A stretch of 64,000 nucleotides of DNA from Candidatus Levybacteria bacterium RIFCSPHIGHO2_01_FULL_40_16 (GTDB lineage Bacteria; Patescibacteriota; Microgenomatia; Levybacterales; UBA12049): the NCBI GenBank assembly GCA_001783805.1, contig MFNS01000007.1, positions 1,594-65,593 of the forward strand. The letters run 5' to 3'. The notes below the pieces were generated by a model. That model saw nothing but the letters and a program-made list of their open reading frames with translations, was not told the DNA's origin and ran no database searches. Positions 14,910 through 27,574 of the stretch are shown one piece after another. The position numbers were made by a program, and so were the translations under genes. The first letter of the stretch is position 1, and the number at the start of each line of letters is the position of its first letter.

Positions 14910-17027
14910 TTACTGTTGGTGCAGAGCATTGATGATTTCATCAGCATTTTTCATCAATACATCTCTCGGCTTTGACCCCTCTGCGTGGCTCACAACTCCT
15001 GCAGCTTCCAGCTGGTCCAAAATTCTGGCCGCTCTTGAATATCCGATCGAAAGCCGTCTTTGCAAAAGCGATGCCGAAGCCCGGTCATACTGGCAAACAC
15101 TTCTGATTGCCTCTTCAAAAAGCGCATCTTTCCCATCGCTCCCGATAGATGCACCCCCCTTCTTAAGAACAAGAGGGTTAGAAAAAACTTCTTCCGTATA
15201 TTCAACCGGCGGATTTTTAGCTTTAAGGAACTCGACTAGTTTTCTTACTTCCTTGTCCGAAACAAATGCTCCCTGAATACGGGTGGGTTTAGCTTGGTCA
15301 GGCGGAATGTACAACATGTCTCCCCGCCCAAGCAGTTTTTCCGCTCCGGGGGTATCGAGAATTACCCGGGAATCAATCATGGAAGAAACATTGAAAGCAA
15401 TCCGGCAGGGAATATTTGCTTTAATTAATCCGGTTATAACGTCAACCGATGGTCTTTGTGTGGATACTACCAGATGAATTCCGGTTGCTCTGGCCATTTG
15501 AGCAAGACGGGCAACTGCATCTTCAACATCCACAGGCGCAAAAGCCATCAGATCGGCCAGCTCATCGATTAGAATTATAATGTAGGGAAGAGCTTGAAAA
15601 CCGGCTAGTTCATTGCAGGCATCGATATTTCTGACTCCCCTTTCCGCGAAAGTCTTGTATCTTCTGTCCATTTCATCCATTGCCCACCTCAAAGATTTCA
15701 AAATTTTTTCAACTTCCACAATTACCGGAGTCATCAAATGCGGTATGCCGTTATAACCGGTCAATTCTACTCTTTTCGGATCAATGAGAATTAGCCTGAC
15801 CTCTGCCGGAGAAGCTCTAAAAAGAAGGGAAGAAATAAAAGAATTAATGAGGACCGATTTTCCCGAACCGGTTGTTCCGGCAATTAAAACATGCGGCATC
15901 TTCGCAATATTGGCAACCACCGGATTACCCGAAACGTCCAGTCCTAATGAAACAGTCAGTTTGGATTTGCTTTTGTTCATCACCGAAGATTCAAGCATGG
16001 TTTTCAAAGTTACAATTTCCAAACTTCGATTGGGAATTTCTATTCCGACCAGATTTCTGCCCGGAATCGGCGCTTCAATTCTGATTTGACCGGTTGGAGC
16101 CTCGGTTCTTAAAGCCAAGTCATTGGCCAAGGCGGTAATTTTGGATAATTTTGTGCCTAAGCCCACCTCCAAAGCATATTGGGTCACTGCCGGGCCTAGA
16201 TTTACCTCAACCACCTTTGCCGTAATTGAAAAACTCTGCAAAGTCTCTTCTATTTTTGCCGCAATATCTTTGATGTTTCCCCGGTCAGCCTTTTGTGAGG
16301 TTGTCTCGGATAATAGGGAGAAAGGGGGATATTCCCAAAGGCCGGCTTTGGTCAGAGGGTTGCTGACTAGCTGATCCCCGAGAAGTGAAAATTCTTTTTT
16401 AATTGAAGATGCATTAATAATTGGAGCAGCGGTTGATAAATTTGGCAGCATCTTTGATCCGCCTTTGATCCGCATCGGATTTTCTTTAAATCCCGATTGG
16501 CGCTTGTTCTTAAAAAACCCGATGAGCCCGCTTGGAAAAAGCCGATGCAGATTTCGGAAGATGCGTTGTATAAAGGCAAAAACCTGATCCACAGAGGTGT
16601 TGAAAAAGACAATCAAACCGACCAAAACCCCTACGAAATAAATTAGATTTGCGCCAATCTCCGTCAGGGGATTCGCAATCATCCGAAAAAGTTCTCTTCC
16701 GGCTATTCCGCTACCTGTCAAAGCGGAAAGAGATATGAAGAAAAGTAAATACCCCAAGGAAACATTGAGTCCGGATAAAAATAATCTTAATTTTAAGAAC
16801 AAAAATCCAAAAAATATTAAAACGAAAGGAAAAAGGATAGCTATGCTGCCGAAATACTGCTTCAAAAGCTCACTGATGAAAATAAAAGATGTGCTGTTTT
16901 TGGTGAAAAAAGACAGAAGAAGAATTATACCTAGAACTATGAACCCAAACGCAAAAAGAGAATAAACAGTGCCCTTTTTTAGCTTTAATCTTAACTTACT
17001 TTTATGATAATGCTTTCTCCTGGCCAT
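14910..17027 (-). CDS. ftsK: DNA translocase FtsK
   Basis: N-terminal TMs, PHVLIAGTTGSGKS, IDELADLM, gamma domain SLLQRRLSIGYSRAAR; start at MARRKH with TATAAT 7 nt upstream. Confidence 0.96.
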   Translation of the reverse strand: MARRKHYHKSKLRLKLKKGTVYSLFAFGFIVLGIILLLSFFTKNSTSFIFISELLKQYFGSIAILFPFVLIFFGFLFLKLRLFLSGLNVSLGYLLFFISLSALTGSGIAGRELFRMIANPLTEIGANLIYFVGVLVGLIVFFNTSVDQVFAFIQRIFRNLHRLFPSGLIGFFKNKRQSGFKENPMRIKGGSKMLPNLSTAAPIINASSIKKEFSLLGDQLVSNPLTKAGLWEYPPFSLLSETTSQKADRGNIKDIAAKIEETLQSFSITAKVVEVNLGPAVTQYALEVGLGTKLSKITALANDLALRTEAPTGQIRIEAPIPGRNLVGIEIPNRSLEIVTLKTMLESSVMNKSKSKLTVSLGLDVSGNPVVANIAKMPHVLIAGTTGSGKSVLINSFISSLLFRASPAEVRLILIDPKRVELTGYNGIPHLMTPVIVEVEKILKSLRWAMDEMDRRYKTFAERGVRNIDACNELAGFQALPYIIILIDELADLMAFAPVDVEDAVARLAQMARATGIHLVVSTQRPSVDVITGLIKANIPCRIAFNVSSMIDSRVILDTPGAEKLLGRGDMLYIPPDQAKPTRIQGAFVSDKEVRKLVEFLKAKNPPVEYTEEVFSNPLVLKKGGASIGSDGKDALFEEAIRSVCQYDRASASLLQRRLSIGYSRAARILDQLEAAGVVSHAEGSKPRDVLMKNADEIINALHQQ

Positions 17028-17132
17028 ATGAACTATTATATACCCCTTCGTTTTCAAAATAAAAGGGGTAATGCCCAACGAAGCCCCGCTCAGCGGGGCG
17101 GAGTGGCATATACCAAAAACCCAGACTACGAG

Positions 17133-17173
17133 TTAAACTTTAATCGTATCTGGGGGGGGCGCAGATCCCCACA
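17133..17173 (+). repeat. degenerate copy A of the rnj 3' end (cassette boundary)
   Basis: ttaaactttaat...ggggggggcgcagatcccc vs rnj end ctaaacttcaat...gggggcggcggcgcagatcc. Confidence 0.75.
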
Positions 17174-17198
17174 AGTTTTCTTGTGATATAATTTATCT

Positions 17199-17627
17199 GT
17201 GGATAAATTCATTGGGATATTAATCGTATCAACCTCAACTATTCTCTATGCGTTTCTCTATCCATTATTGAAAAAAGCTAATCAGCAGTTACCGCCTTTT
17301 ACTACAATGGCCATCTCTATGTTTATACTTTTCCTTCTGGCAGCTTTCTCCAGTATCTTCTTGGAGAATGGATTACAAATTAAAACTAATATTATCAAGA
17401 ATAATCTTCAGATTTTACTTACAGTAGGGGCGATAAATTTTATTGCCTTTTGGCTAGCAATACTTGGTTTCAAGTATATGGCTGTTTGGCAACAGGATAT
17501 GTTTGCGCTGATTACTCCAGTAGTTGCGGGTATATTTGCCTATTTTCTTTTGGGAGAAAAAATGAATCCTAATTTATTTACTGGTTTGATTATCATGGGA
17601 GCAGGTCTCTACATCGCTCTAAGATAA
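17199..17627 (+). CDS. EamA/DMT family transporter
   Basis: 142 aa with several TM helices, ALITPVVAGIFAYFLLGEK motif; GTG start 6 nt after TATAAT. Confidence 0.85.
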   Translation: MDKFIGILIVSTSTILYAFLYPLLKKANQQLPPFTTMAISMFILFLLAAFSSIFLENGLQIKTNIIKNNLQILLTVGAINFIAFWLAILGFKYMAVWQQDMFALITPVVAGIFAYFLLGEKMNPNLFTGLIIMGAGLYIALR

Positions 17628-17652
17628 TAGCTCCTCAGGAAACGAGTAGACA

Positions 17653-17674
17653 TGGGGGGGCGCAAATCCCCACA
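17653..17674 (+). repeat. cassette boundary copy B
   Basis: tgggggggcgcaaatccccaca, nearly identical to the core of copy A. Confidence 0.75.
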
Positions 17675-17695
17675 GACTTTTGATATAATTACCTT

Positions 17696-18238
17696 ATGGC
17701 TAGTGAAATCCATCCAAATAAAGAGTTTAATAAGAACCCTATTGAAATTGCATCTTCTGACGGAGAAATTGTTCTTAGGCAATTTACGCTCCGGGATTCG
17801 GAAGAAATTTTTTCCTTAATCGATAGAAACCGAGAACATTTGTCTCAATTTGGAGATGATACAGCAGATAAATATCCAACCCTACAGTCAGTACGGAAAA
17901 GTATAGAACATCCTAAGAATCCGGAAAGATTACGATTTGCAATCCGGAACAAACAAGGTCAATTTGTAGGAAGCATAAATCTGACACCATATGAGACAGA
18001 TTCAACGCAAGGAGAAATTGGATATTATTTGGGCGCTGAATTTCAAGGAAAAAGATATATGGGAAAAGCAGTTGAGATAATAACAAATTATGGATTTGAT
18101 TTTCTAAATTATAAAACTATTTATGGGGACATTGTCGAAGGAAATACTGCTTCCGTAAACGTTCTTCTTAAAGCCGGCTATCAGGAGACCGGAAAGCACG
18201 GTGAGAAAATCCGCTACTCAAAACAAAGAGGAATGTGA
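17696..18238 (+). CDS. GNAT N-acetyltransferase (RimJ/RimL family)
   Basis: GEIGYYLGAEFQGKRYM, N.AS..VL.KAGY motifs. Confidence 0.9.
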   Translation: MASEIHPNKEFNKNPIEIASSDGEIVLRQFTLRDSEEIFSLIDRNREHLSQFGDDTADKYPTLQSVRKSIEHPKNPERLRFAIRNKQGQFVGSINLTPYETDSTQGEIGYYLGAEFQGKRYMGKAVEIITNYGFDFLNYKTIYGDIVEGNTASVNVLLKAGYQETGKHGEKIRYSKQRGM

Positions 18239-18244
18239 ATCGGA

Positions 18245-18463
18245 GTGAGCGTTGAAACAAGCGCGTTAAAAAATTATTGAATGAGTTGTCAGGGGAATTC
18301 CTCAGCGAGCGAAAGCGAGATTGAGGAAGGGGTGAAATTACCCGACTAACGAATGAAACAATTTTAGCGCGACTTTCACAGCTCAAGAGTTTTTGGTACC
18401 TTTGTCGGCACAAAAGTACATAAAAAAATAAAAATGAGATTCTGAAACTAGTTCAGAATGACA
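18245..18463. repeat. structured repeat copy 1 (long hairpin, tacctttg..caaaagta hairpin, terminal TGTC-type palindrome)
   Basis: Highly similar to 41859-42078 and 33513-33684. Confidence 0.9.
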
Positions 18464-18467
18464 ATTT

Positions 18468-18498
18468 GGAAAAAGGGGGGTGGCGCCGCCGATCCCCC
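18468..18498 (+). repeat. cassette boundary copy C
   Basis: ggaaaaaggggggtggcgccgccgatccccc. Confidence 0.7.
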
Positions 18499-18553
18499 AA
18501 CAAGGCAACCTGATATATTTTGATATACTCCTCCTTTTTGCTATAATTCCACA

Positions 18554-19597
18554 ATGATGAATCCCGAAAACAGAAGTCGCCTTAATCAAATTCCAGCAAG
18601 CGAATCGCTTAGGAGTTGCGAACGACTTAAACCCGGTTATAAATTACTTTTGGCAGGACCAGGATTTCTGGGAGGGTTTGCATTTAAGGAAGTGGGAAGA
18701 ATAAATGAAATTCTTAAGTCAGTAGGAGATTTCGATGAAGCACTAGCGAGAACTTTATTGTATGAATATTTTTCAATTCACAGTCTTTTTTCACGAATGG
18801 TAGGTAAAGAAAATATAGTAGTGATAAAGACTTCAACGATAGAAGTAAAATCTTCTACCAACAACATGATCGCTGCCTTAAAACGAGTGCAATTCCCCGA
18901 TAATTCTGAATTTAAACAAATAGACGCGGATTTCTTAAGTCAAGGCTATCTCAATTGGCCAAGAGACGCATATACACTATTGGACGATAAATTAATGGTG
19001 GATAGTACTGCTTTAAAAATTAATGGTGACAATATTATTAAATCTAGTTTGGGTGAAGGAGGACAAGTTCTTGTTAGGAAAAAAGCTATTCTCGTTACTC
19101 CAGGTATCTGGAAATATAATAAGACTGAAATTAATAGTTTGCAAGGGCAGGGTTACCGAGTTGGATATTTGCCATTTGTAGATGAAACAAAGCAGAAATA
19201 CGATTTTATGGAAACACATATTGACGGCCATTCGACGCTAATAGAGGACCGTGAGGGAAAATTAAATTTAATCGTTGCAGATTCTTACTCCAGGCAAGGA
19301 AATAATACGAGAAAATTTATTAGAAGAGCTGCAGAAACAATTGGGGCTGAAATGATTGAGGTTGATGATAGAAATCTACCGCCCTTAGCTTTTAATGTAC
19401 TTCAATTCGAAGATAATTCGATAGCCATGACAAACTCTAAAGCCAAAGATCTTGAGTTAACCATATATGACTTAGTTGGCAATGACAAAGTCTTCACTAC
19501 GGAGGTTCCATTAATTAATGTACCAAAACTTACTTTAGGAGGAATCCGTTGCCTAACTAATACAATTCCGAATTGGGTTTTGAATAAATATAATTAA
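18554..19597 (+). CDS. amidinotransferase / arginine deiminase superfamily protein
   Basis: WPRD, GEGG, HIDG, GGIRCLT motifs match the Asp/His/Cys pentein catalytic set. Confidence 0.75.
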   Translation: MMNPENRSRLNQIPASESLRSCERLKPGYKLLLAGPGFLGGFAFKEVGRINEILKSVGDFDEALARTLLYEYFSIHSLFSRMVGKENIVVIKTSTIEVKSSTNNMIAALKRVQFPDNSEFKQIDADFLSQGYLNWPRDAYTLLDDKLMVDSTALKINGDNIIKSSLGEGGQVLVRKKAILVTPGIWKYNKTEINSLQGQGYRVGYLPFVDETKQKYDFMETHIDGHSTLIEDREGKLNLIVADSYSRQGNNTRKFIRRAAETIGAEMIEVDDRNLPPLAFNVLQFEDNSIAMTNSKAKDLELTIYDLVGNDKVFTTEVPLINVPKLTLGGIRCLTNTIPNWVLNKYN

Positions 19598-19609
19598 TTT
19601 AGGCTGGAT

Positions 19610-19627
19610 GGGGCGCCGCCGCAGACC
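19610..19627 (+). repeat. cassette boundary copy D
   Basis: ggggcgccgccgcagacc; minus strand reads GLRRRP, cf. rnj DLRRRP. Confidence 0.7.
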
Positions 19628-19646
19628 AGAATTTTACAGGGCTTAA

Positions 19647-19928
19647 TCAATATCTTCTGTATTTATCGTGTTTTCCGATATCCAGGAATAAAGCTGTGCC
19701 CTTGTCTATCCAGGAAAAGAAAATTCGGTTGCCCCTATTAATTCTAATTGTCCAAATACTGTTGCCTTTAAGTTTTTCTAAATTTAAACTTGGATGATTG
19801 GGATTTTTAACAAATAGGGTTATCGCTTTAACTGTTTTAGTAAAAAGTTCAAAATTATTGTTTAAGAATTTCTTTCGGGAAGTTAAATACCTTGAAGAAT
19901 ATGTGATCTTTATGCATGCATTAAGCAT
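19647..19928 (-). CDS. type II TA toxin, RelE/ParE superfamily
   Basis: NPNHPSLNLEKLKG..WTIRINRGNRI...DIGKHD.Y; overlaps the antitoxin stop. Confidence 0.85.
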   Translation of the reverse strand: MLNACIKITYSSRYLTSRKKFLNNNFELFTKTVKAITLFVKNPNHPSLNLEKLKGNSIWTIRINRGNRIFFSWIDKGTALFLDIGKHDKYRRY

Positions 19929-20190
19929 TTGCTTCTTTTCTCATTTCCTCCAAATCAGCTTCAAGTTCTTCCTTTGTAGAGATTGTTTTTGTCTTTCCGG
20001 CTTCATACTCTCTCAAAGCTTCATTAAGCACTGCATCTAATTGGATTTTTTCTAAAAGATCAAGACTAATAATAGCCCCTAGCGGTTTATTGTTAGACAT
20101 AACAATAATTGGCTCTTTGGATTTATTTGCATCTTCCAAAACCTTCTTGTACCCTCTTTGGATCTGTCTTGCTGATACCGTATTAAACAT
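19921..20190 (-). CDS. type II TA antitoxin, Phd/YefM family
   Basis: TVSARQIQRGYKKVLE...EPIIVMSNNKPLGAIIS; TATAAT 6 nt before ATG. Confidence 0.85.
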   Translation of the reverse strand: MFNTVSARQIQRGYKKVLEDANKSKEPIIVMSNNKPLGAIISLDLLEKIQLDAVLNEALREYEAGKTKTISTKEELEADLEEMRKEANA

Positions 20191-20247
20191 GCAATCATTA
20201 TACGCCTTTAAAATGTGTATGTCAATATGACATACATTAATTCTGCC

Positions 20248-20285
20248 CTTCAATCACGACCGGTAAAAAAGGGGGGGCGCAGATC
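20248..20285 (+). repeat. cassette boundary copy E
   Basis: cttcaatcacgaccggtaaaa (21 nt identical to rnj 20921-20941) followed by aagggggggcgcagatc. Confidence 0.9.
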
Positions 20286-20330
20286 AGATTTACTGACTTC
20301 GATAGAAACAATCTATATAATCCACCCATT

Positions 20331-20567
20331 ATGCCAACGAAAGAACGGCCGGCACAATGCCTACTCGGTAACGGAGAGTGCCCTAAATCGTGCGAAAATT
20401 ACGCAATGTCTAGATTGATAACTAATAAGTTGGGCGATAATTTTGACCCTTTCCTATCGAGGCTTCGGGTAATATTTGGGGATGGTTTTAGTAGAGATAT
20501 AAGGGTTGGCGACGTAGCAAATGCTTTAAAAAAGTGCATTAGCGAAAAGAAACCATCTCTATTATGA
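20331..20567 (+). CDS. small hypothetical protein with Cys cluster
   Basis: 78 aa, CLLGNGECPKSC; TATAAT upstream; fills the space between two boundary repeats. Confidence 0.6.
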   Translation: MPTKERPAQCLLGNGECPKSCENYAMSRLITNKLGDNFDPFLSRLRVIFGDGFSRDIRVGDVANALKKCISEKKPSLL

Positions 20568-20599
20568 CCGGCAGAACGTGGGGCGCCGCCGATCCCTTA
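20557..20599 (+). repeat. cassette boundary copy F
   Basis: Minus strand reads DRRRP then, after a 1-nt shift, VLPVIIE, cf. rnj DLRRRPLVLPVVIEV, with synonymous codon changes. Confidence 0.85.
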
Positions 20600-20646
20600 T
20601 CGGACCAAATAACGCATTCTAGCCGGATTTTTAGTATAATAAATGT

Positions 20647-20901
20647 ATGAAAGTCAAAAAATTTGGCTTTTTAAAACCTCGAATACCCAATCTCTTACTC
20701 ACTTTTATTATTCTGTTTTTACCTTTATTTAGAGAGCAATATAACGGAGGACAATATGTAGCCTGGTACAGGCTAATCGATTTATTGATTGGTTCTTTGA
20801 GGCAGCCCGGAACCCTAGGTTTGTTTTTTCTAACGTTAGTTTTTTCCTTAATAATCTATTTTTTCGTATCGTTAGTAATTTTTAAGATAATTCAGAGGTG
20901 A
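20647..20901 (+). CDS. small membrane protein
   Basis: 84 aa, two TM segments; TATAAT 6 nt before ATG. Confidence 0.65.
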   Translation: MKVKKFGFLKPRIPNLLLTFIILFLPLFREQYNGGQYVAWYRLIDLLIGSLRQPGTLGLFFLTLVFSLIIYFFVSLVIFKIIQR

Positions 20902-20915
20902 CTCAAAACGAAAGA

Positions 20916-22580
20916 CTAAACTTCAATCACGACCGGTAAAACCAGGGGGCGGCGGCGCAGATCCTTAAAGATTCTTCTTTCCGCGACTTCTCCAATTAAT
21001 TTTCTCATATAAATCCAATTTGTCACACGGGCTTTGCGCGGATTTAAAGCTTTATGCATGTCCTGCGACAATTTGGAGCTTAGATGCTTGATGTCGTATA
21101 AAAATCCTCTGACAATAATATCCGGGGCTCCCAAAAGCTGTCCTGTTGCCGAATCTATTTCTGCGAGAACTATAATTATTCCGGCTTCTGATAATTTTTG
21201 TCTGTCCCGGAGAACAAAACTCTCCAACTCTTCTCCGGATATTTCATCCACATAAACATTTTTGGTCGGAATTGTCCTGCCCAATTTTACCTGACCGTCG
21301 ACAAACAAAAGTTCCTGCCCGTCTTCCAACAGGAAAATATCATTTTTATGATACCCCAATTTTTCTGCCAATTTTCTGTAGGCAAACATGTGTCGGTATT
21401 GTCCGCCGATAGGAATTAATTTTTTCGGTCTGACTAATTTTATTAACTGTTCCAGCTCATCCAATGATCCGTGTCCGGAAACATGAAAATCTTTGGACAC
21501 CGGGGAGTAGACAACTCTCACTCCCCTGCGGGTTAACGTATCGACTAATTCGTAAACAGAAGTTTCATTGCCGGGAATCGGATCAGAGGAAAAAACAATC
21601 ACATCTTCTTCCCGTAATTTCACATCCCTGTGTTCGCCATTGGCAATTCTGGTTAACGCGGAATTCTCCTGCCCTTGGCTTCCCGCGACAATTAAAGTTA
21701 ATTTATTATCCGCATGATTTTTCAAATTATCTATCTCCACCTCAATATCTTTTTTCAAATTAAGATATCCCAAATCTCCGGCCACTTCCCTATTCCTAAT
21801 CAGAGACCTACCGACAAAACAAATTCTTCTTCCATTATCAACAGAGGCTTTAATAATTTGATTAAGTCTGGCAATATTGGATGAGTAAGTCGTCACAATA
21901 AATTTACCTTTGCACTCTCTCATTTCGCGGTTGAAATGCTCTAGTAATCCAATGTCTGATTGCGTCCTGCCTGCTCTTTCCGCACCCAGACAATCGGATA
22001 ATAAACACATTGTTCCCTGTGACGCTAATTGCGAAATTTTTGCATAATCGGATTTTTTTCCATCAGACGGAGTGTCATCGAATTTAAAATCACTACCATG
22101 GTAAAAATTCCCAACCGGTGTTTTAATAAAAATATGCGAGGTGTCAGAAACGGAATGGGTAACGGGGATAAAGGAAAATCTAAAACTGCCGATGCTTTTT
22201 TCCGGCTCATTGAATTTAACTGTCTGCACTCTTTTTTGCGCTTTAAAATCTTTTAATTTGGCATTGGCAAAGGCCGCAGTTAAAGGAGTGGCAAAAATTG
22301 GAAAATCAGGCAGTTGGGGCAATAAAAATGGCAAAGCCCCGATATGATCTTCATGTCCATGAGTTAAAAGCATGCCAACAATTCTTTTCTTGTTCTGCTT
22401 TGCAGAATTTAGCAAATAAGAAATATCCGGCAGCAATAAATCAACTCCCAGCATAGTTTCATCGGCAAAACCAAGTCCGCAATCAACGATCAGGATTTGA
22501 TCATTGTACTCATACAGATACATGTTTTTGGTGACATTCCCAATCCCGCCAAGAGGAATAAAAGATAATTGATTATTCAT
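20916..22580 (-). CDS. rnj: ribonuclease J
   Basis: LGGIGNVTKNM, THGHEDHIGA, GSQGQ, HVSGHG, RRPLVLPVVIEV. Confidence 0.96.
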   Translation of the reverse strand: MNNQLSFIPLGGIGNVTKNMYLYEYNDQILIVDCGLGFADETMLGVDLLLPDISYLLNSAKQNKKRIVGMLLTHGHEDHIGALPFLLPQLPDFPIFATPLTAAFANAKLKDFKAQKRVQTVKFNEPEKSIGSFRFSFIPVTHSVSDTSHIFIKTPVGNFYHGSDFKFDDTPSDGKKSDYAKISQLASQGTMCLLSDCLGAERAGRTQSDIGLLEHFNREMRECKGKFIVTTYSSNIARLNQIIKASVDNGRRICFVGRSLIRNREVAGDLGYLNLKKDIEVEIDNLKNHADNKLTLIVAGSQGQENSALTRIANGEHRDVKLREEDVIVFSSDPIPGNETSVYELVDTLTRRGVRVVYSPVSKDFHVSGHGSLDELEQLIKLVRPKKLIPIGGQYRHMFAYRKLAEKLGYHKNDIFLLEDGQELLFVDGQVKLGRTIPTKNVYVDEISGEELESFVLRDRQKLSEAGIIIVLAEIDSATGQLLGAPDIIVRGFLYDIKHLSSKLSQDMHKALNPRKARVTNWIYMRKLIGEVAERRIFKDLRRRPLVLPVVIEV

Positions 22581-23625
22581 TTGTTAAAAACTGTTTAATG
22601 TTTTCCGCTGTAACTTTTACGGTTTGTGTTTTCTTCTCCACAATCATCCGGGCTGCTTTTCTACAAACTCCTTCAATTGAGCGCTGAAGACTTCTGATTC
22701 CCGAATCATATCCGAGCGGCCGGATGATGGTTGGCCAAACCATATCATCAATAGAAATCTGCTCGGAGACAAGACCTGTCTGTTTTAATATTTCCGGAAA
22801 TAAATATCTTTGTGCAATTACGGTTTTTTCTTCATCCGTATAGGAGGGCATCTGAATAATTTGCAAGCGGTCAAGTACCGCGGTCGCAATATTGGTTGTG
22901 TTGTTGGCTGTGGCGATAAATAAAACTTTGGACATATCGAAAGGATAATCAACGTAATGATCGACAAAAGCTTTATTTTGTTCCGGATCCAAAAGTTCAA
23001 CTAAAACACCCATAATATCTTTTCTTCCCGTTTCGGTCACTCTGTCCAGCTCATCCAGCAAAATTACGCAATTTCTACTCCGAGCATGGATTAGGCTTTT
23101 CATCACCAGTCCCGGTTCCGCGTCCAAACTTGAGCGCGATTTTCCGCGCAAATCACTGGCGTCTCCCATTCCACCAAGCGGTATTCTTTCAAATTTCCTT
23201 CCCAGACTTTGGGCAATTGAATAAGCCAGAGTGGTTTTCCCGGTTCCGACCAGCCCGACCAGACAAATTATCGGCGAACGGGCAATATTGTTTTGATTAT
23301 GAATATTTAAAATAAGTGAAGAGAGATATTCCAAAATTACATTTTTGACACTTGGTAATCCGTAATGATTTTTATCCATAATTTCTTTGGCCTGAACAAT
23401 ATCCAGAATGTCTTTTGTTTCTTTATTGAAGGGCAAAGCCAAAATGCAATTGACGTAATTGGAGAAATTCTCAAAATTGATAAAAGAATTTTCTCCTTTA
23501 AGACTCAAGCGCAAAACGCTAATTTCTTCTTCCAATTTTTCGGCAAGATCCGCGGGTAATTGAGCTGCTTTTATTTTTTCTTCAATTTCTATGATTTTAC
23601 TTTCCAAAGGAGCATTCGAATCCAT
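22573..23625 (-). CDS. Lon protease-like AAA+ protein (no N-domain or protease domain)
   Basis: HYGLPSVK..ILEYL, GLVGTGKT, LLDELD, LLDPEQN.AF.DHY. Confidence 0.85.
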   Translation of the reverse strand: MDSNAPLESKIIEIEEKIKAAQLPADLAEKLEEEISVLRLSLKGENSFINFENFSNYVNCILALPFNKETKDILDIVQAKEIMDKNHYGLPSVKNVILEYLSSLILNIHNQNNIARSPIICLVGLVGTGKTTLAYSIAQSLGRKFERIPLGGMGDASDLRGKSRSSLDAEPGLVMKSLIHARSRNCVILLDELDRVTETGRKDIMGVLVELLDPEQNKAFVDHYVDYPFDMSKVLFIATANNTTNIATAVLDRLQIIQMPSYTDEEKTVIAQRYLFPEILKQTGLVSEQISIDDMVWPTIIRPLGYDSGIRSLQRSIEGVCRKAARMIVEKKTQTVKVTAENIKQFLTNE

Positions 23626-23659
23626 AGCTTATATAAATTGTACAATTAAAAACAAAAAA

Positions 23660-23698
23660 TTAATAGTGGGATTTGCGGAAGTGCTAACCCGCCGGCGT
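23660..23698 (+). repeat. duplicate of the pnp 3' end (att-like)
   Basis: 22 nt identical to 25196-25217 and 34/39 identical to 25196-25234. Confidence 0.9.
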
Positions 23699-23812
23699 AG
23701 CGTAGCCTCAAGCCCACACCCGATGTGGAAAAGTGAAAATGCACGTTTTTTGGAAAAAATTATGCCGAAGAACAAAATACAAAGAATCAAAAAAAAACTA
23801 AGCTTCAAAAAA

Positions 23813-24532
23813 TTAAGCTCTATTCACTCCCGAAGAACGACCACCCAAGTCCGGATAGGAATCGCGCCGAGGCAGAAACCAATCGACGTGCAGGTAGCCA
23901 TCCGGATCGATGTAGGCGTTAATCAAATCGCTGCCACTACGAGACCCAACACGAGCCCGAGTATTTCCTTCATCTAAGTATTGTCCTTTGAAAAGTTTAC
24001 TGTCCTGACTTGCGATAAGGTATTGATTCAAGCTGAGTAATTGCCTTTTTGCCTTACCAAGTTTATTCATGAGCTCATCCACTGTTGTTTTGGTGTGCGG
24101 CGCATTGACACTAACTTCATAGTCAAACCAGCCAAATGGGTTCCCGTCATTAGCTACGCCATTGCCTTCTTGAACGCTTCTGCTTTGCATTTTGGGAAAC
24201 ATTTTACCTAGAATATGACGACTTTCCTGTGTTGCCAGAGCTGTTGGAAGATAGCCCAGCCTTAATTCCTTCTTTTCCAGATCGGCTAATTCTTCTTTTG
24301 TGAAAGGACAAGGGGTAACCTCAAATTTAATACCTGCAAGTCTTCCTCTTTCCTGCCAAATAGTCTGAAAAGTTTTGGTCACCAATTCCGGAGTTAAGGT
24401 CCCTCTCTTATGTTCCTTATTATATTCTTGAATTACAGGAGTTATTAAATCTGCAAACTGCGACGCATTTAATACGTACACTATATCTCGATTATTAAGA
24501 TGTTCCTGTGTCATAGGTTTAGTTTGTATCAC
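23813..24532 (-). CDS. putative DGR target-like protein (C-type-lectin-like C-terminus)
   Basis: Paralog of 28155-28883; C-terminus INAYIDPDGYLHVDWFL...PDLGGRSSGV resembles CPR DGR variable regions. Confidence 0.55.
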   Translation of the reverse strand: MIQTKPMTQEHLNNRDIVYVLNASQFADLITPVIQEYNKEHKRGTLTPELVTKTFQTIWQERGRLAGIKFEVTPCPFTKEELADLEKKELRLGYLPTALATQESRHILGKMFPKMQSRSVQEGNGVANDGNPFGWFDYEVSVNAPHTKTTVDELMNKLGKAKRQLLSLNQYLIASQDSKLFKGQYLDEGNTRARVGSRSGSDLINAYIDPDGYLHVDWFLPRRDSYPDLGGRSSGVNRA

Positions 24533-24578
24533 AACTATAAGCTAGATGTCAAATTTTGGAGATTTAGGCAGGAGATTT

Positions 24579-24908
24579 TTATATAAATAATGCGCGGATA
24601 TTTTTAAAAACCGTGCTTCTGGTTGCTGCGGTTAACTGGCCGACGGTCTTTTTTATAATAGTCGTGTCTGCCGTAAACAGCTTATCCGGCCGCACATAAC
24701 TAATAATTGGCAGACCGCCTGTCGCAAAATCAGACTGCTTAAGACAAATTGATATTTTGCTTGTATACGGTTTTGAAGTAATTTGACACAAAATAAGGTT
24801 ATTAAATTCAACGTTTGCCAAAACAAGGGCCGGGCGCACTTTCTGACCTTTTAAATTAGAAAACGGGAATGTAACGAGAACGACACTGCCTACTGCAAAC
24901 TTGCCCAT
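24579..24908 (-). CDS. PemK/MazF family toxin
   Basis: GSVVLVTFPFSNLKGQKVRPALV...ILCQITS. Confidence 0.9.
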   Translation of the reverse strand: MGKFAVGSVVLVTFPFSNLKGQKVRPALVLANVEFNNLILCQITSKPYTSKISICLKQSDFATGGLPIISYVRPDKLFTADTTIIKKTVGQLTAATRSTVFKNIRALFI

Positions 24909-25129
24909 GCCTTGTCCTCCTCCGGCCGATTCCAATCGCGATCGAGTATTTTTTCTGATAACAACAGCGTATCGGCCACAGATTTATCCCGCATGGGCGC
25001 TGCAACAATTCTTATTTCACCTCTTTTTACCCGCAATTCAACTCTATCGTTAAGACCGCTTTCGTTGATTAGCGGCTTAGGTATGCGTATCCCGCGGGAG
25101 TTTCCTATTGGAATTAGTGTTGTTATCAT
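24890..25129 (-). CDS. AbrB/MazE family antitoxin
   Basis: IGNSRGIRIPK...DWNRPEEDKAW; overlaps the toxin start. Confidence 0.88.
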   Translation of the reverse strand: MITTLIPIGNSRGIRIPKPLINESGLNDRVELRVKRGEIRIVAAPMRDKSVADTLLLSEKILDRDWNRPEEDKAWASLQ

Positions 25130-25195
25130 AGTAATTACATTGTACATACCAATAATGGCCTTGTCAAGTCCGAATTTGAATTTTAATGCTGAAAT

Positions 25196-27574
25196 TTAAT
25201 AGTGGGATTTGCGGAAGCGCGAACCTGCAGGTGTTGATCCTAAAGACCGCCCGCCCGGAGTTCTTCTGTCTCTCCAATTGCCGGTACCCCTACTTGCTCC
25301 TTGGGAAAATCTTTCCCTGCGGAATTGTCTTGCCAACGGATGTTCCGAAGGAACAGTTCCCATTACCGGCGGAGCCATCGGAGGCTGTGGTTCCCCCTGA
25401 TTAACTACCGGCGGAATTTCTCTTTTGGGCGGAACATTTCCGCCTTCCGCTCCAAATAACATGGATAAATTTGTTCTTCCCTGATCATCAATTTCCACCA
25501 CCTTAACTTTGACTTTTTGTCCGATAGAAACCACATCCAAAGGATTGCGGACAAATCCCTCTTTCATCTTGGACACATGCACCATGCCTTCTTTGCCGGG
25601 TAAAAATTCCACAAACGCTCCAAAAGGCAATACTCTCTTAACTTCGGCTTCCTCAAAAATTTCTCCAACTTTTACTTCACGGGTTATTCCTTTAACCCAT
25701 TCTACGGCTTTGGCAACTGCATCTTTATCTGTTCCGGAAATCGTGACAATTCCGCTGTCTTCAACATCTACAGTTGCGCCGGTTGTAGCAATAATATTTT
25801 TAATTACGCGTCCCCCGGGGCCAATCACTTCGCCGATTTTGTCCACCGGAATTTGCACTTGTTCGATTTTTGGCGCATATTCTGAAACTGCTTTTTTACC
25901 CGTTCCGACAACCGCAATCATTTTTTCCAGAATAAACAAGCGTGCAACTTTGGCTTTTTCAAAAACCTCTTTAATTTGCTCAATAGTTATTCCCAAAATT
26001 TTTACATCCAGCTGAATTGCCGTAATTCCTTCGTTAGTTCCCGCAATTTTGAAATCCATGTCTCCTGAAAAATCTTCCAATCCCAAAATGTCTGTCAAAA
26101 TTACATATTTATCCTCTTTGGAAACCATGCCCATGGCAATTCCCGCCACCGGTTTTTTGATCGGGACTCCCGCATCCAGCAAAGCTAAAGTTGATCCGCA
26201 AGCTGCAGCCATTGAGGTAGAGCCATTGGAAGATAATATTTCCGAAACTACTCTGATTGTGTAAGGAAATTCCGTTTGACTTGGAATAACCGCCATGATT
26301 GCCCGTTCGCCTAAAGCTCCGTGTCCGATTTCCCGGCGTGATGTAAATCCAAATCTTCCGGTTTCTCCGACAGAATACGGAGGCATATTGTAATGATGGA
26401 TATATCTTTTGCTTTCTTCGCCTTCCGCAGATTCGATCAGCTGTTCCATGCGGGGTGAACCTAAAGTGACAATTGTCAGAGCTTGTGTATCCCCCCTATT
26501 AAAGATCGCCGAGCCATGAGTTCTAGGAAGAACCGAAACTTGGCAGGAAATCGGCCTTATTTCATCAAATTTTCTTCCATCCGGCCTAATACCCTTTATC
26601 AAAGTATTCTCTCTGATTTTTTTGAACATTACGTGCTCAATTGCATCCGCGATCATTTTTTTATCGATAACAAACTCTTCATTTTTCGCTTTTAATTCTT
26701 CAATAATTTTGTCTATAAATTCTCCGGGTTCGCCGCTTAATTCTTTGGTTAATCTGCTTTTAATCATTCCCGAAATTTCATCCAGATAAGATTTTTCCAA
26801 AAGAGCAATCAGTTCCGCATGATGGGCGTTTGGTTTTATTTCTTCCTTTTTGGTTCCTGTTTTTTTTGCAAAATCTTCAATAAAGTCAATGATCTTAGCA
26901 TTTTCAATTTGCGCTTTCTTAATTCCCTCCAGAGCTATAGTTTCTGTAACCTGATTGCTTCCCGCTTCAAGCATCAAGGTTTTATTTTTCAAACCGGTAA
27001 CAATTAAATCCAGTTCCGAAAGTTCGGATTCGACAATTCCCGGGTTAACAATAAAATCAGATCCTGAGTTTGCCGAAGGACCGTTTTCTTTTTCCTTGAC
27101 ATATCCTATGCGCACAGCTCCAACCGGGCCTTTCCAAGGAATTGGAGAAATTGTTAAAGCCGCCGAGGTCGCGACAACCGATAAAACATCCGGAGAATTT
27201 TCCCCATCAACGGATAAAATTGTTGCAATGATTTGGACTTCTTTTTTGAATTCCTTGGGGAAAAGCGGTCTGACCGAACGGTCGATCAAGCGGGCAGAAA
27301 GAACTGCGTCATCGGTTGGCCGTCCTTCTCTTTTTACCCATCTACTTCCCTTAATTCTTCCTCCGGCATACAATCTTTCAACATACTCAACTGTTAAGGG
27401 AAAATAATCAATGTCCGCTCTTTCTTTTCCCATGACTACGGTTACCAAAACCATAGTATCACCAAGCCTGGCTAAGACGGAGGATGTTGCTTGTTGGGCT
27501 AGATTTCCAACCTCCAGAGTCAATGTTTTTCCGCCGACTTCCAAAGAGGCTGTGGTTTTTTTATTTGTAGTCAT
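25196..27574 (-). CDS. pnp: polyribonucleotide nucleotidyltransferase
   Basis: RREIGHGAL, SNGSTSMA, GDMDFK, KH and S1 domains. Confidence 0.97.
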   Translation of the reverse strand: MTTNKKTTASLEVGGKTLTLEVGNLAQQATSSVLARLGDTMVLVTVVMGKERADIDYFPLTVEYVERLYAGGRIKGSRWVKREGRPTDDAVLSARLIDRSVRPLFPKEFKKEVQIIATILSVDGENSPDVLSVVATSAALTISPIPWKGPVGAVRIGYVKEKENGPSANSGSDFIVNPGIVESELSELDLIVTGLKNKTLMLEAGSNQVTETIALEGIKKAQIENAKIIDFIEDFAKKTGTKKEEIKPNAHHAELIALLEKSYLDEISGMIKSRLTKELSGEPGEFIDKIIEELKAKNEEFVIDKKMIADAIEHVMFKKIRENTLIKGIRPDGRKFDEIRPISCQVSVLPRTHGSAIFNRGDTQALTIVTLGSPRMEQLIESAEGEESKRYIHHYNMPPYSVGETGRFGFTSRREIGHGALGERAIMAVIPSQTEFPYTIRVVSEILSSNGSTSMAAACGSTLALLDAGVPIKKPVAGIAMGMVSKEDKYVILTDILGLEDFSGDMDFKIAGTNEGITAIQLDVKILGITIEQIKEVFEKAKVARLFILEKMIAVVGTGKKAVSEYAPKIEQVQIPVDKIGEVIGPGGRVIKNIIATTGATVDVEDSGIVTISGTDKDAVAKAVEWVKGITREVKVGEIFEEAEVKRVLPFGAFVEFLPGKEGMVHVSKMKEGFVRNPLDVVSIGQKVKVKVVEIDDQGRTNLSMLFGAEGGNVPPKREIPPVVNQGEPQPPMAPPVMGTVPSEHPLARQFRRERFSQGASRGTGNWRDRRTPGGRSLGSTPAGSRFRKSHY

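Follow-up and report, generated by a model that had tools for sequence, protein, structure and literature searches.

Cis-mobilizable and integrative mobilizable elements (CIMEs and IMEs) accrete at the 3' ends of housekeeping genes, where tyrosine integrases insert them between direct repeats of 8-60 bp (PMC5704250). Insertion with long target duplication has been described for restriction-modification (R-M) genes flanked by near-identical repeats, mostly in naturally competent species (PMC2853133). In arrays of type VI secretion system (T6SS) effector-immunity genes, for which homology-facilitated illegitimate recombination (HFIR) is proposed, new modules push old modules and their 3' ends downstream with no known integrase (PMC5361080). 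The minimal mobile elements (MMEs) of Neisseria are, by definition, replaced by two-sided homologous recombination alone (PMC3898611). We describe an array of accessory genes between rnj, which encodes RNase J, and ftsK in the groundwater bacterium Candidatus Levybacteria bacterium RIFCSPHIGHO2_01_FULL_40_16 (assembly GCA_001783805.1, contig MFNS01000007.1; genome G000, 897,674 nt in 7 contigs, 98.9% complete). Coordinates are those of the window, the whole 64,000-nt stretch analysed; G and L numbers denote genomes and rnj loci, and negative positions are counted from the 3' end of the gene concerned. The array is real and is a deep example of tail-replacing cassette accretion: in an interval of 3.8 kb, six degenerate copies of the last ~48 nt of rnj, all on the same strand, partition six cargo units, each with its own promoter.

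The array can be placed as a variant of two known processes, 3'-end accretion and insertion with long target duplication, and it departs in a defining property from CIMEs, long target duplication, T6SS arrays and MMEs alike. As in CIME/IME accretion, the incoming element supplies the gene end, the repeats fall within 8-60 bp, the gene stays intact and units stack at one site. Unlike it, the array has no integrase-bearing member and no arms that we could find, its units are mostly single genes with a promoter beside the repeat, and many unrelated targets are used per genome. With long target duplication it shares repeats of ~45-50 nt, the lack of a mobility gene and an often gene-terminal position (PMC2853133). 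The array has a repeat longer than 30 bp, an empty site in a relative and no mobility gene found; its cargo is, however, diverse, its tails are those of foreign alleles and it stacks six deep. The near-identical repeats and R-M cargo of the published cases are not seen, the tails being synonymously diverged and R-M genes being confined to a single related locus, L057. The T6SS arrays follow the same displacement logic (PMC5361080), but here the anchor is a housekeeping gene whose protein is unchanged and the swapped tract spans ~16 codons. The long one-sided stretch of donor allele that HFIR uses as an anchor is lacking in close pairs, in which donors of the same species would be invisible. 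MMEs likewise place variable whole-gene cassettes between two conserved genes, but displaced tails and accretion lie outside their definition (PMC3898611), and these two features call for a step beyond two-sided homologous recombination. Integrons share the layout, with single accessory genes (GNAT, DMT, toxin-antitoxin [TA]) between repeats at one site, reshuffled among genomes. Yet the searches gave no IntI, the repeats consist of gene tails, and the cassettes carry their own promoters and lie in both orientations; the array is not an integron, and "integron-like" applies to its layout only.

Streamlined Patescibacteria genomes gained many genes horizontally (PMC12455944), and the word "integrase" is missing from the main text of that account. 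The integration step of such gains has not been worked out, and the literature searched (mostly non-subscription papers) yielded no description of tail-scar arrays in this group. Tail scars offer a countable, orientable record of each gene gain, from which circle junctions and insertion points can be predicted exactly. Should no dedicated enzyme be required, they mark a route to integron-like arrays without integrons; if one is needed, it is an unrecognised enzyme with a precise site within a core gene.

Displaced and foreign tails of rnj

The anchor gene rnj (20916..22580, minus strand; 554 aa) matches Pfam RNase_J_b_CASP and RNase_J_C and scores above the cut-off of TIGR00649; ftsK (14910..17078, minus strand, identified by Pfam, with a likely start near 17027) is its usual downstream neighbor. 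The active rnj tail, its last 16 codons, occupies 20916..20963 on the minus strand, with an exchange point at ~20963/20964 placed by the border profile and the synonymous jump described below, and was probably brought by the latest insert. Six minus-strand copies follow, and all of those listed in the first-pass annotation are present, in the same orientation and at the positions given. Copy F (20557..20598) overlaps the stop of a cargo gene and encodes VLPVIIE with synonymous changes, and copy E (20248..20285) has a frameshifted core but shares exactly 21 identical nt with active rnj. Copy D (19610..19628) encodes LRRRP in other codons, copy C (18470..18496) is a core with a G/C hairpin, and copy B (17653..17670), also a core, is the weakest and falls under the profile threshold. 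Copy A (17133..17169) keeps IKV* and is followed by the native rnj-ftsK spacer, since the sequence beyond it matches the spacer of the empty-site locus L002; judged by this, it is probably the original rnj tail. Of the annotated match to the last ~50 nt of rnj, B, C and D retain the 5' core alone (~16-30 nt). A 13-nt pattern, written post hoc from the copies, has seven exact matches in G000, namely the six copies and rnj. With one mismatch allowed it has 11 matches in the window, a count never reached in 100 shuffles (mean 1.54, maximum 6). Contigs from four public sequencing runs, two of which may have gone into this assembly, back the layout.

A scan with the rnj-tail pattern matched 40 records, the named close ones being Ca. 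Levybacteria or Levyibacteriota. We surveyed 103 non-redundant rnj loci, 77 from other genera and 26 close ones (6 genomes of the genus and 20 metagenome contigs, grouped by at least 75% rnj identity). Across all 103, 40 have ftsK no more than 300 nt from rnj. Among the close loci, 2 have an empty site and 18 a filled one, and ftsK was not reached in 6. Scars scoring at least 36 occur in 10 of the 18 filled loci and in none of 18 reverse-complement controls. With a more lenient profile, 17 of the 26 have copies, although scores of 17-22 from this profile are not individually significant (5 null matches in 34,346 nt). In the other genera 38 loci are empty and 29 filled, with two scars, one clear and one doubtful. 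The 89 open reading frames (ORFs) in 30 intervals include TA pairs, GNATs, HADs, EamA transporters, R-M genes and many unknowns. Whole cassettes are re-used: the TA cassette of the window reappears in L046 with an identical right junction and divergence starting just inside the motif, and its GNAT lies behind rnj in L046 and L180 (83% nucleotide identity), where homology stops at the motif and both neighbors and order differ. Number, order and content thus vary among relatives with breakpoints at the motif, so that neither the fixed order nor the unrelated breakpoints named beforehand as evidence against capture were what we found. GNAT homologues occur in 12 of 245 genomes overall; outside the genus they adjoin other genes, and no scar was detected there. 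Two-sided homologous recombination may explain the filled loci that lack a scar.

The copies are unlikely to be simply worn duplicates of the resident tail. Across 31 copies (two having been dropped by hand beforehand), 155 of 253 differences from the resident tail fall at third positions and 156 of 253 are synonymous, compared with 29% expected; intact copies differ only synonymously (7/7 in L057, 3/3 in L001). Such a bias indicates that both copy and tail were coding alleles, in agreement with the earlier proposal that the modules carry rnj ends from other alleles. Between close pairs, identity is ~82-97% over the rnj body and ftsK but only 75-86% over the last 51 nt of rnj. Four of the six pairs tested show a jump in synonymous divergence over the final 16 codons (p 0.005-0.03), with 90-95% identity in the preceding 100 nt of these four; related pairs are non-independent and the tail is richer in four-fold codons. 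Only in the tail do close pairs attain the divergence of distant ones. Beyond the last copy in an array comes the spacer native to the empty site. Compared over 30 nt, the last copies of L039 and L044 agree with the empty-site tail at 27 positions and with their own active tails at 21 and 23.

Among 36 hand-anchored copies (L001, the third L005 copy, the second L046 copy and L031 were left unanchored), 20 match rnj at -48 (5.4 expected) and 29 at -49 (19.2 expected), with matches near chance further 5'; a few copies reach ~-58 or begin later. A single exchange point thus starts both the foreign and the displaced tail. These comparisons demonstrate, at the level of sequence, tail-replacing insertion at a single point, with foreign tails, a short swapped tract and re-use of whole cassettes. 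The repeated capture at a fixed point within rnj that had been proposed is thereby upheld.

Tail scars behind other genes

The earlier notion of a system specific to rnj was not supported, as the same kind of scar lies behind many other genes, with no common sequence. Of the 714 non-paralogous genes in G000, 13 are followed within 3 kb by a repeat of their own final 50 nt (score at least 34), compared with 2 for an internal 50-mer, 1 of 675 for the flank of another gene, 1 on the reverse strand and 5 upstream. The corresponding figures for G003 are 10 of 664 genes, with 0, 0 of 612 and 2 in the controls. After inspection ~9 and ~7 of these rows stand. Those judged false or doubtful are, for G000, a palindrome, a fragment resembling LamG, an ORF of low complexity and a cargo ORF whose end lies within the pepP scar, and, for G003, rpoC, a simple repeat and a short repeat cassette. 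The targets, named partly through G003 orthologues, comprise pnp, recG, fusA, ychF, rho, ftsZ, ruvB, xer, a histidine kinase, a Xaa-Pro peptidase and an RfbH-like gene; further targets are presumably mreB, alkD and pgk. Nineteen curated copies at 14 other genes show 56 of 94 differences at third positions and ungapped borders from -17 to -50. No shared motif was found at these borders (no 4-mer in more than 3 of 16 sites), and GC content is not higher after them (0.44, compared with 0.50 before). Mirror-image duplications of 5' starts scored at least 34 at 7 of 714 genes and proved on inspection to be low-complexity sequence, a paralogue or an intergenic repeat.

Within the window, a duplicate of the pnp tail lies at ~23660-23700, following a MazE/MazF-like pair and an orphan of 239 aa (23591-25199). 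The pnp site is filled here and empty in 11 close loci, which makes rnj a hot spot and pnp a rare one. A ribbon-helix-helix (RHH)-like and PIN pair lies in the rnj-ftsK interval of L032 (8922-9607) and behind the pgk-like tail of G000 (C7:189751-190427), at 74% and 60% identity; different targets can thus hold similar cargo. Downstream of the Xaa-Pro peptidase gene (G000:C1:326669-327626), both cargo ORFs end inside displaced tails, in another frame. In G003 (C3:982-1917), the targets include a xer recombinase gene, whose displaced tail copy lies 1.3 kb downstream. In a second array, beside msrA (G000:C1:345980-351079), single accessory genes are separated by another GC-rich motif (CCGGCTGCAACCCCC-like), which is present seven times on the same strand.

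Possible routes of insertion

The best reading of the array, at roughly even confidence, is that host machinery inserts tail-tagged cassettes through short homology and without a recombinase. The mobile unit would be a minimal cassette, in which the final ~48 nt of an rnj allele are joined to one accessory gene or a few and to their promoter, and it would enter by a single exchange near -48. The incoming tail would complete rnj and shift the old tail downstream, where it would decay, and repetition would build the array. With a chromosomal donor from the same clade, homology would reach far upstream of the border, yet that region is not swapped; the donor therefore probably carries the tail alone, as would a circle or an internal cassette with a tail at either end. 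Such a unit could travel as a small circle or tail-ended fragment, be taken up via natural competence and be integrated by RecA and DprA in the absence of MutS, with no dedicated recombinase. G000 has RecA, DprA, ComEC and a ComM-like protein, and MutS was found neither there nor in 5 of 6 relatives. The sole MutS-like match among the 7 genomes of the genus is a 1203-aa open frame with two MutS_V matches (G005:C12:2183-4681). The same route would serve the 3' ends of many core genes, with rnj as a hot spot in this clade. The multiplicity of targets, together with the failure to find arms or an enzyme, favors short-homology recombination by the host. More tentatively, capture of this kind may extend across the Patescibacteria, with the last 20-50 nt of almost any core gene acting as an attachment site and tail-tagged single genes circulating between species and stacking into integron-like arrays via competence and recombination machinery.

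Several observations weigh against insertion by host machinery. Across 29 unrelated flanks, rnj homology drops to chance 5' of -48/-49, a border sharp enough to resemble the cut site of an enzyme. Within the clade, conservation is 0.83 upstream and 0.78 downstream of the border and so does not start there, and homology alone thus fails to explain it; the border as the onset of conservation was rejected within the clade, the change point relative to other genera being at -33. The scars are clade-restricted (10 of 18 filled loci, compared with 2 of 29 in other genera), and filled GC-rich tails elsewhere have none (0 of 6). The latter count, together with the lack of a GC rise at other borders, led us to reject a GC-rich tail as a sufficient cause. 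The synonymous jump is lacking in 2 of the 6 pairs, and the last copy of L040 does not favor the empty-site tail (22 against 21) and is uninformative. Decay shows no newest-first gradient along arrays (rho -0.02, n 27, with 6 weak profile matches dropped by hand and copy B added). Among the joints listed from contigs of four runs, none at the motif marks a circle or an empty site, though contigs drop rare forms. About half of the 89 interval ORFs have no Pfam match. A 48-nt patch at ~80% identity is a poor substrate for RecA. Finally, neither host insertion nor the integrase alternative that follows accounts for the first joining of a gene to a tail.

Site-specific integrases acting in trans (phage, IME or Xer enzymes) on an attB near -48 of rnj, with the cassettes as fully decayed CIME-type remnants in tandem, form a serious rival that we consider possible though somewhat unlikely. 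The sharp, clade-restricted border favors such an enzyme, and the foreign functional tails, short swapped tract and bias to 3' ends suit it too. Tyrosine-integrase IMEs accrete with CIMEs at housekeeping 3' ends between repeats of this length (PMC5704250), and large serine recombinases are present in 146 of the 245 genomes of the order. The dedicated unlinked recombinase of the first-pass annotation nevertheless gained no backing, at any rnj locus or from a conserved cassette arm, whereas its statement that no integrase adjoins the array stood. Queries with 4 large serine recombinases and 2 Xer proteins gave no tblastn match in 132 rnj loci (some redundant). The 89 interval ORFs include no integrase or transposase family, and within this limited sampling of 132 loci and 89 ORFs no integrase-bearing element was found at the rnj site. 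The cassette-side arm of 29 flanks (-90 to -53) is no better conserved than shuffles (p 0.61, 0.92), the left arm having been inspected by eye, and 10 of 36 copies have a -10-like motif that ends only 7-33 nt short of the border. Searches of viral contigs and phage records gave no attP-like tail or rnj match. No serine recombinase lies within 20 kb of rnj among the matches listed across the order (150 of 331 serine-recombinase and 150 of 241 rnj matches, compared by eye). The two tyrosine recombinases of G000 both score best as XerC/XerD, and five relatives in the genus have two each, one of them with three matches, two of which are partial. PF00239, PF07508, IS110 and IntI (TIGR02249) gave no match over cut-off in G000, where reverse transcriptase and RecT were not found either. 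Further, an enzyme since lost would be required for every one of the ~16 unrelated targets in the two genomes.

Classical HFIR, in which a long donor stretch of rnj serves as the anchor and the far end is joined at a GC-rich hot spot in the resident tail, appears improbable. The competence genes of G000 and a border ahead of a run of 81% GC would accommodate it, as would the displacement logic proposed for Vibrio T6SS arrays (PMC5361080). Upstream of -51, however, the rnj body tracks ftsK in close pairs and the tail alone is foreign, the borders at other genes lack the GC rise, and the same cassettes keep the same junction across different genomes. Plain target duplication, with copies identical at insertion and diverged afterwards, is very improbable and largely refuted by the codon bias, as neutral decay would not leave intact copies differing only synonymously and the published repeats tabulated are identical at 43-47 of 45-47 nt (PMC2853133), even though the ~48-nt length and gene-end position resemble those 45-47 bp cases and copy E retains its 21 identical nt.

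Cargo units and passengers

Counting from rnj, the first cargo unit is an 84-aa predicted membrane ORF (20647..20901, plus strand; TATAAT at 20635) with no Pfam or NCBIfam match. The second, a 78-aa Cys-containing ORF (20331..20567, plus strand; TATAAT at 20316), has no family and one homologue besides itself (49% identity). The third, the only minus-strand unit (19647..20225), pairs a Phd antitoxin with a ParE/RelE-like toxin, assigned by Pfam, behind a TTGACA-17-TATAAT promoter. A 347-aa protein (18554..19597, plus strand; TATAAT at 18542) is followed by a GNAT acetyltransferase (17696..18238, plus strand; TATAAT at 17684) and an EamA/DMT transporter (17199..17627, plus strand; TATAAT at 17187), both assigned by Pfam. 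The annotated identities of EamA, GNAT and Phd passed the Pfam cut-offs and the ParE-like toxin fell just under. The putative assignment of the 347-aa protein as an amidinotransferase comes from a predicted PAD/DDAH-like fold (template modeling score 0.56-0.62 to PAD/DDAH models in an Atlas structure search), sequence searches of Pfam, NCBIfam and the PDB having given no match. Five of the 6 units are oriented toward rnj, and cargo GC is 32-42%, compared with 40-43% for rnj and ftsK.

The claim of a separate promoter for each module was well founded: a perfect TATAAT lies 6-9 nt ahead of the start codon in all six units, and likewise in ftsK. A spacing this short suggests leaderless transcripts and translation. 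A general promoter scan stayed at chance level (12 found, 12.6 expected).

A dispersed non-coding repeat of ~220 nt (18241..18465, no strand assigned), overlooked by the first-pass annotation, rides in the array as a passenger, with 13 BLAST matches in G000 and a depth peak in four runs. It resembles repetitive extragenic palindromes or miniature inverted-repeat transposable elements; it has palindromic parts and, in this clade, often lies directly after gene stops. Two Y1-transposase-like genes occur in G000. The rnj-tail copies had no match in Rfam. The decayed copies (A-D, and also those of L045 and L046) converge on a poly-C core preceded by a G-run and form short hairpins, that of copy C reaching ~-17 kcal/mol on the cargo strand. 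These hairpins were possibly co-opted as terminators or produced by template switching.

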